Shown: in pieces, positions 731 through 2,040 of the stretch | How positions within the stretch are numbered: the first letter of the stretch is position 1 | Layout of the letters: each line of letters begins with the position of its first letter | Sequence record: AF017626.1 | Strand: one strand, 5' to 3' | Length of the DNA stretch: 2,662 nucleotides | Source: Escherichia phage 21 | Translations under genes and position numbers: made by a program | Notes under the pieces: generated by a model | Seen by the model: only the letters and a program-made list of their open reading frames with translations | What the model was told of the DNA's origin: nothing | Databases searched by the model: none

Positions 731-772
731 TGAACCGCCCCGGGTTTCCTGGAGAGTGTTTTATCTGTGAAC

Positions 773-1663
773 TCAGGCTGCCAGATCATCGTTTCCGATG
801 GAAGCATAATAAGCTTTTTCTGCTTCTGCCGGAGGAGTATGGCCCAGCCTTTCCAGCAATCGTCGATTGTTATACCAGTCCACCCACGTGAGTGTGGCCA
901 GTTCCACTTCTGCACGGTTTTTCCAGCTCTTACGGTGTATTACCTCCGCTTTGTAAAGACCATTGATGCTCTCCGCCATCGCGTTGTCATACGAGTCGCC
1001 TGTACTTCCTGTTGATGCCAGTAATCCGGCTTCCTTAAGCCGCTGTGTGTAGGCCAGCGATACATACTGAGAACCTTTATCACTGTGATGGACCGTGCCG
1101 GACGGTCGACGGGCCCATAACGCCTGCTCCAGTGCATCCAGCACGAATGTCGTTTCCATGGACGATGAGACCCGCCACCCCACGATGTATCCGGCAAACA
1201 CATCAATGATGAACGCCACATAGACGAAGCCCCGCCATGTGCTGACGTAAGTAAAATCAGCCACCCACAGCTGGTCAGGTCGTTCTGCCACGAACTGACG
1301 GTTTACGCGGTCGCCTGCGGCAACGGCTTTCCGGCTGATGGTCGTACGGACCTTTTTACCCCGGAGAACACCGGCAAGTCCCATAACCGCCATGAGACGT
1401 GCCACAGTGCATCTGGCCACTCTGATACCTTCCCGTAACAACTGACGCCAGACTTTACGCACACCGTATACCTTGTGATTTTCATCGTATACGCGCTGTA
1501 TCTCTTTCTTCAGCCAGTCATCGCGCTGCGCACGGGCACTGCGTTTATCCGGATGATGTCGCTGTTGCTGACAGTGGTAATACGTTGACGGGGCAATATG
1601 CAGTTCGCTGCATAGCGGTCCGACCCCGTACTGCTCACGCAGCTTATCCAGCAGTGGCATCAT
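773..1663 (-). CDS. IS3-family transposase OrfB (DDE catalytic domain), probably expressed as an OrfAB fusion by -1 frameshift
   Basis: 296-aa ORF with DDE motifs ([33 protein letters not shown]). Its frame is -1 relative to orfA and stays open upstream to 1726. The ATG at 1661-1663 overlaps the orfA stop (ATGA) within an A6 run. Confidence 0.9.
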
Positions 1664-1986
1664 TTTTTCCAGAGGCGGTCGAACTCCGCCTTCGCAAAAT
1701 AAGCGGAAGCCTGGCGAAGGATATCGTTACTGCGGCGCAGTTCACGATTTTCACGTTCCAGCTCTTTCAGACGCTGACGTTCAGCGGTGGTGAGCCCTCC
1801 ATCACCGCCCCCGGTATCCCGCTCATGCTGGCGAACCCAGACACGCAGAGTCTCCGGCGTACAGCCAATCTTTGGAGCAATGGAACAAATTGTCGCCCAT
1901 TGTGAGTCATATTCGCTCTGACTTTCCAGAACCATACGGACTGCCCGTTGACGGACTTCGGGGGAAAAACGAGTATTTTTAGTCAT
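1660..1986 (-). CDS. IS3-family transposase OrfA (helix-turn-helix plus leucine-zipper-like region)
   Basis: 108-aa [64 protein letters not shown]...[36 protein letters not shown], matching IS629/IS3411 OrfA as I recall it. ATG at 1984-1986 is preceded by a Shine-Dalgarno sequence (AAGAGG on the - strand, about 1991-1996). Confidence 0.9.
1663..1669 (-). other. Putative programmed -1 ribosomal frameshift site (A6 run, TGGAAAAAATGA on the - strand) at the orfA/orfB overlap
   Basis: Six consecutive A residues on the - strand (1663-1668) immediately before the orfA TGA stop. The orfB frame is open across this site. IS3-family elements typically frameshift at A-rich heptamers. Confidence 0.55.
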
Positions 1987-2040
1987 CCTGTTTACCTCTT
2001 TCTCAGGAAGTTTAGTCTCCAGGATTCCCGGGGCGGTTCA

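Follow-up and report, generated by a model that had tools for sequence, protein, structure and literature searches.

We analysed a stretch of 2,662 nucleotides from Escherichia phage 21 (AF017626.1), here called the window, and all coordinates of the element described below are window positions. The window opens with the last 54 codons of icd, the gene for isocitrate dehydrogenase (positions 1-165; Pfam Iso_dh), which are followed by a terminator-like hairpin at positions 189-211. Beyond the hairpin, a tyrosine-recombinase gene on the minus strand fills the window, broken by a 1310-bp insertion sequence (IS) that we identify below as a copy of IS629. A first-pass annotation, made from the letters of the window without database searches, had delimited this insertion as a complete IS3-family element of exactly 1310 bp, and both its coordinates and its length proved exact. 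The features of the locus are listed in the table.

When the element was deleted together with one of the two TAT trinucleotides that flank it (positions 731-2043), the remaining 1349 bp formed one continuous integrase frame. This reconstructed site showed no mismatch to the corresponding empty site of E. coli O7:K1 strain CE10, and a megablast search of 5,426 complete E. coli genomes, with the whole window as query, returned many genomes with the exact uninterrupted 1349-bp arrangement. The window reads ...GCAGATAT, then the element, then TATCGCC..., with TAT on either side. A duplication of 3 bp agrees with the 3-4 bp that are characteristic of the IS3 family, and it could be checked directly against the empty site. 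Thus, the TAT/TAT pair that had been taken for a target-site duplication is a real one. The element entered the site in a single clean insertion and has not been rearranged since, as the earlier annotation had proposed; the empty site is identical at every base, and rearranged copies in related strains, described below, provide the contrast.

The gene that received the element is the integrase gene of a lambdoid prophage, a point on which the first-pass annotation was silent. At the empty site of CE10, an intact lambda-type integrase of 380 residues is encoded next to icd, with an excisionase gene upstream and the lambdoid early genes exo and bet beyond. The insertion point lies after integrase residue 231, directly past catalytic box I (TGQRLGD). 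The IS points in the same direction as the integrase gene, and the reading frame of the N-terminal fragment runs nine codons into the left terminal inverted repeat (IRL) of the element before it stops at position 2012. In genomes of enterotoxigenic E. coli (ETEC) with the same insertion, for example ETEC 67-1, both halves of the integrase gene are called pseudogene fragments by the Prokaryotic Genome Annotation Pipeline (PGAP). Because box I is parted from the HxxR motif, the second histidine and the catalytic tyrosine, self-excision of the prophage should be lost, and we infer that the prophage is no longer able to excise through its own integrase.

Table. Features of the interrupted integrase locus and of the IS629 element in the window.
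Feature	Coordinates	Strand	Remarks
Integrase gene, 5' part	2041..2662	-	to residue 231: arm-binding and core-binding domains, catalytic box I TGQRLGD
Integrase gene, 3' part	279..730	-	residue 232 to stop: HxxR (residue 332), second His, catalytic Tyr
Complete IS629 element	731..2040	-	1310 bp; own left end (IRL) at 2040, right end (IRR) at 731
IRL, 25-nt terminal inverted repeat	2016..2040	-	TGAACCGCCCCGGGAATCCTGGAGA on element strand
IRR, 25-nt terminal inverted repeat	731..755	+	TGAACCGCCCCGGGTTTCCTGGAGA read inward
Target-site duplication, copy 1 (TAT)	728..730		single TAT in CE10 empty site
Target-site duplication, copy 2 (TAT)	2041..2043		single TAT in CE10 empty site
orfA, 108 aa, helix-turn-helix DNA-binding protein	1660..1986	-	Pfam PF01527 HTH_Tnp_1, E 7.4e-13
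orfB from its ATG, 296 aa, DDE catalytic domain	773..1663	-	frame open from 1726
orfAB fusion gene, 404 aa, by -1 frameshift (predicted)	773..1986	-	U_UU.U-shifted product is the usual annotated form
Slip site 1, UUUUG	1695..1699	-	U_UU.U (1699-1696) in orfA phase, 4-5 nt upstream of stem-loop 1
Slip site 2, A6 run then U	1662..1668	-	A_AA.A (1666-1663), then orfA UGA stop; overlaps orfB ATG
Apical loop-internal loop (ALIL) pseudoknot, predicted frameshift stimulator	1589..1705	-	Rfam RF01497, 120.2 bits, E 4e-32
Catalytic D136 codon of OrfB	1256..1258	-	by alignment to avian sarcoma virus and HIV-1 integrase
Catalytic D195 codon of OrfB	1079..1081	-	by alignment to avian sarcoma virus and HIV-1 integrase
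Catalytic E231 codon of OrfB	971..973	-	by alignment to avian sarcoma virus and HIV-1 integrase

The element itself is complete. Both terminal inverted repeats are present over 25 nt, neither end is truncated, and the two arms match at 23 of 25 positions (92% complementary in an inverted-repeat search). Read inward, both ends begin with TGAACCGCCCCGGG, and the termini, TGAACC...GGTTCA, are the imperfect repeats with TG...CA ends that are expected of an IS3-family member. The two genes described before, orfA and orfB, are likewise intact, the first with an HTH_Tnp_1 domain and the second with an rve domain. Besides rve (PF00665; E 8e-28), OrfB matched rve_3 (PF13683) and HTH_21. OrfB alone scored 314.6 bits against the NCBIfam equivalog model NF033516 (transpos_IS3), which has a curated cut-off of 160 bits; the match covered model positions 93-369, and OrfA spans positions 1-86 of the same model. 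As in other members of the family, orfB is read in the -1 phase with respect to orfA; its frame is open from 1726 to 773 and shares 67 nt with that of orfA.

A DDE triad had been claimed for OrfB, and we could place its residues by aligning the OrfB core with the integrase cores of avian sarcoma virus and human immunodeficiency virus type 1 (HIV-1). These alignments, with E values of 0.06 and 0.019, respectively, were weak but colinear over the whole core; they came only from a core-domain query at E <= 10, and a phmmer search of PDB sequences with full-length OrfB gave no match at E <= 0.01. The triad assigned in this way is D136, D195 and E231, in the contexts WVAD136FT, HHSD195KGS and MAE231SIN, with 35 residues between D195 and E231 and a lysine, K238, at +7 from the glutamate. 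On this alignment, OrfB carries the IS3/retroviral DD(35)E signature plus K.

The frameshift window had been assigned to the A6 run alone. This run (positions 1668-1663), which lies across the orfA stop and the orfB ATG, is indeed an in-phase slip site, but the assignment was incomplete in that a U_UU.U site followed by a pseudoknot lies upstream. The U_UU.U site sits 33 nt upstream of the A6-run site; both are in phase and both lie within the 67-nt overlap of the two genes. The match to the ALIL model RF01497, for which the gathering score is 50 bits, covers the full model (positions 1-117) and starts at the U-run. The loop of stem-loop 1, GUUCGA (1684-1679), is complementary to the internal loop of stem-loop 2, UCGGAC (1623-1618), at 6 of 6 pairs with one G-U, and both stem-loops, which are separated by 45 nt, appear in the computed fold. 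This spacing falls in the range published for ALIL signals, in which stem-loop 2 lies 44-104 nt 3' of stem-loop 1, as reported for IS3411 and no fewer than 27 further IS (PMC5009743). The tetramer U_UU.U ranks with those more prone to shifting in E. coli, A_AA.A being weaker, and members of the IS3 family use both (PMC4066793).

The fusion protein translated from the window through the U site matched exactly on 379 contigs, where it is named 'IS3 family transposase'. The fusion through the A site corresponded exactly to WP_085959878.1, 'IS3-like element IS629 family transposase', which occurs on a single contig. The same DNA is therefore given two product names, depending on which slip site is used to build the fusion. 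Chen and Hu are said to have reported in 2006 that IS629, with its 25-bp imperfect inverted repeats, uses both -1 signals, TTTTG and AAAAT, and that the TTTTG product is the transposase, which the AAAAT product reportedly stabilises. Judged from its sequence, the A6 run is not the sole -1 shift site of the element and probably not the main one, the fusion usually annotated being shifted at the U_UU.U site in front of the ALIL pseudoknot. We would expect frameshifting to occur and one of the two sites to yield the active enzyme. By analogy with other IS3-family members, orfA would give a small helix-turn-helix protein, and a programmed -1 shift of the ribosome close to the orfA stop would join orfA to orfB to give a DDE transposase of 404 residues. 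This transposase would recognise the 25-nt inverted repeats, and the element would be copied out as a circle and pasted into a new target with duplication of 3-4 bp.

The annotation as an IS3-family, IS629-like element could be narrowed. The element was identical at 1304 of 1310 nt (99.5%), with the same boundaries, to the mobile element of the Stx2 phage LC567824 that its depositors labelled 'IS3 family IS629'. The six nucleotide differences cause two amino acid differences, S24G and R252Q; neither is at a DDE residue, and no difference is structural. Identity was 99.6% to a copy on a Shigella boydii plasmid, 99.2-99.3% to copies on the Shigella flexneri virulence plasmid, and 96.1% to the copy on pO157 of strain EDL933, which PGAP names IS1203. 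No low identity to references of the IS629 family appeared among the copies compared. Moreover, the primers of Ooka et al. that are specific for IS629 (as given in PMC3271280) find their sites at positions 1761-1782, with 0 mismatches, and at positions 1002-1021, with 1 mismatch. IS1203 and IS3411 are isoforms of IS629 that differ by 4-5% (Rump et al., PMC3271280), and IS1203 is treated as such elsewhere as well (bioRxiv 10.1101/2023.06.07.543989). By these comparisons, for which the names of the reference copies come from depositors or from PGAP, the element is IS629 sensu stricto and belongs to the IS629 branch, not to the IS1203 branch.

With IS629, which was first described in Shigella sonnei and is abundant in pathogenic E. 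coli, O157:H7 among them, the element shares its 1310 bp, its termini, the order of orfA and orfB and the 3-bp duplication; duplications of IS629 are 3-4 bp long (PMC3271280). Its location in a prophage is also common to 62% of the O157 copies (PMC3271280). IS1203 and IS1203v, from E. coli O111:H- and O157:H7, have the same length, organisation, frameshift region and ALIL sequence, but the inverted repeats of the EDL933 IS1203 copy differ at positions 14-16 (IRL, GGGTTT versus GGGAAT; IRR, GGTTTT versus GGGTTT). IS3411, the isoform in which the ALIL pseudoknot was characterised, is likened to the element by description of its slip site and stem-loop arrangement, which is the same, and not by percent identity. 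The more distant IS911, IS3 and IS2 share OrfA and the frameshifted OrfAB DDE transposase, the TG...CA ends and the 3-4 bp duplication. They use A_AA.A_AA.G-type heptamers, or A_AA.G, with hairpins or H-type pseudoknots, whereas the element of the window has tetramer sites and an ALIL pseudoknot.

A relative on the Enterobacter cloacae plasmid pIMI-6 (positions 61-1367 of compared locus L005) is 80% identical and keeps the U-run and stem-loop 1 exactly. Its A-run is A5 and not A6, so that the orfB frame meets a stop codon, and no transposase is annotated in the record. It is thus probably a decayed copy, and with its pseudogene-like stop we set it aside as uninformative about the conservation of the slip sites. 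A further observation concerns a 16-mer inside orfA, ACCGCCCCCGGTATCC at positions 1804-1819, which matches the core of the terminal inverted repeats at 14 of 16 positions; 0.01 such inverted-repeat-like matches are expected by chance in the window. The 16-mer codes for the glycine-rich TGGGDGG stretch of OrfA, and in the pIMI-6 relative the match falls to 12 of 15. Although unlikely by chance, it was set aside as a candidate functional site for the transposase on account of this decay.

Several lines of evidence bear on the mobility of the element. Related copies were present in 4,264 of the 5,426 complete E. coli genomes, and in 1,299 records the best copy was at least 99% identical. Genomes of CE10-type relatives matched the element at 33-40 places each. 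The best 25 matches were all 100% identical over 1310 bp and lay in unrelated contexts (tssC, ynfC, phage tail and ejection genes, plasmids and other integrases), and identical copies were also found on Salmonella and E. coli plasmids. The exact OrfB protein is encoded on at least 370 contigs. Over 7349 nt, strain AF57 shows 0 mismatches to CE10 and departs from it by just one additional, identical IS629 with a GGT duplication, located between xis and a DUF4222 gene (4719-6028 of compared locus L001). This insertion argues that the exact sequence of the element has transposed very recently in a lineage that shares the flanks of the window. Mobility of the element is thus well supported by sequence comparison, and the earlier description of it as probably transposition-competent is a reasonable one, given the identical copies in many contexts and the AF57 insertion. 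The copy in the window is presumably still mobile.

The insertion at TAT in the integrase gene is present in more than one background. Six complete genomes, in all of which the split integrase gene is annotated adjoining icd, have the two junctions with identical orientation and TAT; among them are the ETEC strains TW11681, 504239, 67-1, WS1933D and S1-NGR-02-A. The loci compared for this same-site insertion were L002 (3731-5040) and L008 (1-621). In ETEC 67-1, the IS is 100% identical to that of the window, and the flanks differ at 21 positions, the nearest being 91 and 107 bp away from the junctions. The allele of the window itself was found in the draft genome GCA_003333855.1, with 0 mismatches over 899 nt on a contig that ends inside the IS. 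The left junction had no exact match in the GTDB species-representative genomes. In WS1933D (NZ_CP035836.1, 293849-297588) and in NZ_LR883000.1, the two junctions lie about 3.7 kb apart, compared with the roughly 1.5 kb expected, and the right part bears the label 'IS629 family transposase'; the IS there appears to have taken up a further insertion.

Two observations concern the icd side of the locus. Twelve of the 21 differences of the ETEC allele cluster at positions 1-245, that is, in the 3' end of icd and the adjoining intergenic region, which would fit the idea that phage DNA has replaced the end of icd at the attachment site, as e14-type phages do. In addition, three direct repeats of about 12-13 nt, with the consensus CTTCCCCAAAAC, occur at positions 227-269, in the interval that separates the icd terminator from the integrase 3' end; the arm-type binding sites for integrase in the attachment region of the prophage would be expected about here.

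The integrase gene has also received IS629 in the avian pathogenic E. coli (APEC) strains E12053 and BEN5202, as a second insertion besides that at TAT. Extension of the IS-end matches by 11 nt into a sequence labelled 'integrase' made these copies candidates for the same insertion, but this was rejected: the copies lie in the same gene at a different site, about 285 bp away (the equivalent of positions ~2322-2324), and in the opposite orientation. Neither copy (L009, 2271-3580; L010, 2512-3821) is flanked by a duplication, and what follows on the far side is a phage replication gene or other IS sequences, from which we conclude that both were rearranged. The two integrase targets are alike, GGCGATAT/C in the window and GGCAATAT/C in the APEC strains. 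No target specificity of IS629 is known according to Rump et al. (PMC3271280). The occupation of the TAT site in two flank-allele backgrounds, CE10-like and ETEC, together with the second site in APEC, raises the idea that the integrase gene of icd-adjacent prophages is a recurrent target of IS629 with a short preferred target sequence; we regard this as a speculative suggestion that is probably not correct.

Taken together, we conclude, with a probability of about 0.93, that the window holds a copy of IS629 that arrived by a single, co-oriented insertion between codons 231 and 232 of the integrase gene of an icd-adjacent lambdoid prophage, with duplication of TAT. Some points weigh against one or another part of this conclusion. 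The identity of the element as IS629 rests on copies named by depositors or by PGAP and not on the ISfinder types of IS629, IS3411 and IS1203. The folding energy of the frameshift region did not differ significantly from that of shuffled sequences (z = -1.41), so that the evidence for structure is the score of the covariance model. No sigma-70-like promoter was found in the whole window at the thresholds of the scan, and S24G and R252Q may affect function. The last points would also suit an element that is intact but silent and immobile, either because S24G and R252Q, its differences from the phage-borne IS629, impair the protein or because too little transposase is made; IS3-family elements in general keep transposase levels low through inefficient frameshifting (PMC4066793). 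A silent copy is nevertheless very improbable. The exact OrfB and the exact U-site fusion recur on the contigs counted above, DNA that is 100% identical is present in many loci and replicons, this same sequence is the one new insertion that sets AF57 apart from CE10, and the two substitutions are away from the DDE residues.

As to how the insertion came to be in this gene, the segment could have been imported, already interrupted, by homologous recombination from another lineage, in which case the duplication would record an older event elsewhere. The shared junctions, orientation and TAT of the six complete ETEC genomes would be accounted for in this way, as would an IS without differences between flanks that differ at 21 sites, since the distances to the nearest differences leave room for a conversion tract over the IS and short flanks; moreover, a prophage with a defective integrase should be unable to spread by lysogeny. 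However, the IS variant of the window is the commonest form, with identical copies everywhere, and for this reason its identity in the two alleles says little about descent. Nor is the difference-free gap around the junctions unusual for the density of differences in the integrase region: 9 differences in ~1070 bp give a chance of ~0.19 of finding none in 196 bp. The empty site is found exactly in CE10-type relatives, among which the same IS has also inserted afresh, and this makes local transposition the simpler explanation, and we consider import unlikely, if still the most serious of the alternatives. A purely coincidental match of the two TATs, with the element lying between sequences joined by an IS-mediated rearrangement, might be entertained in view of a chance of 1 in 64 for 3 bp, of matching duplications in only 21 of 47 IS629 copies of O157 (PMC3271280) and of the rearranged APEC copies in the same gene. 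It is refuted by the flanks, which, when joined through a single TAT, equal CE10 at 1349 of 1349 bases and restore one continuous integrase frame. Local transposition of IS629 into the integrase gene thus remains the explanation that we favour.

The element is a textbook copy of an IS that is already known, and there is nothing new in it as such; beyond annotation its significance is small. For annotators, the correction to be made is that one and the same DNA carries two product names according to the slip site that a pipeline uses. The insertion is a marker for typing strains, like those on which IS-printing of pathogenic E. coli is based, and the element is a possible substrate for later IS-mediated deletions, as in the APEC relatives. 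Its practical meaning is local and lies in the inactivation of the integrase of the icd-adjacent prophage. Loss of the integrase likely means that this lambdoid prophage is fixed in the chromosome and, if the gene were in fact a recurrent target, hits by IS629 would repeatedly lock the prophage into the chromosome.

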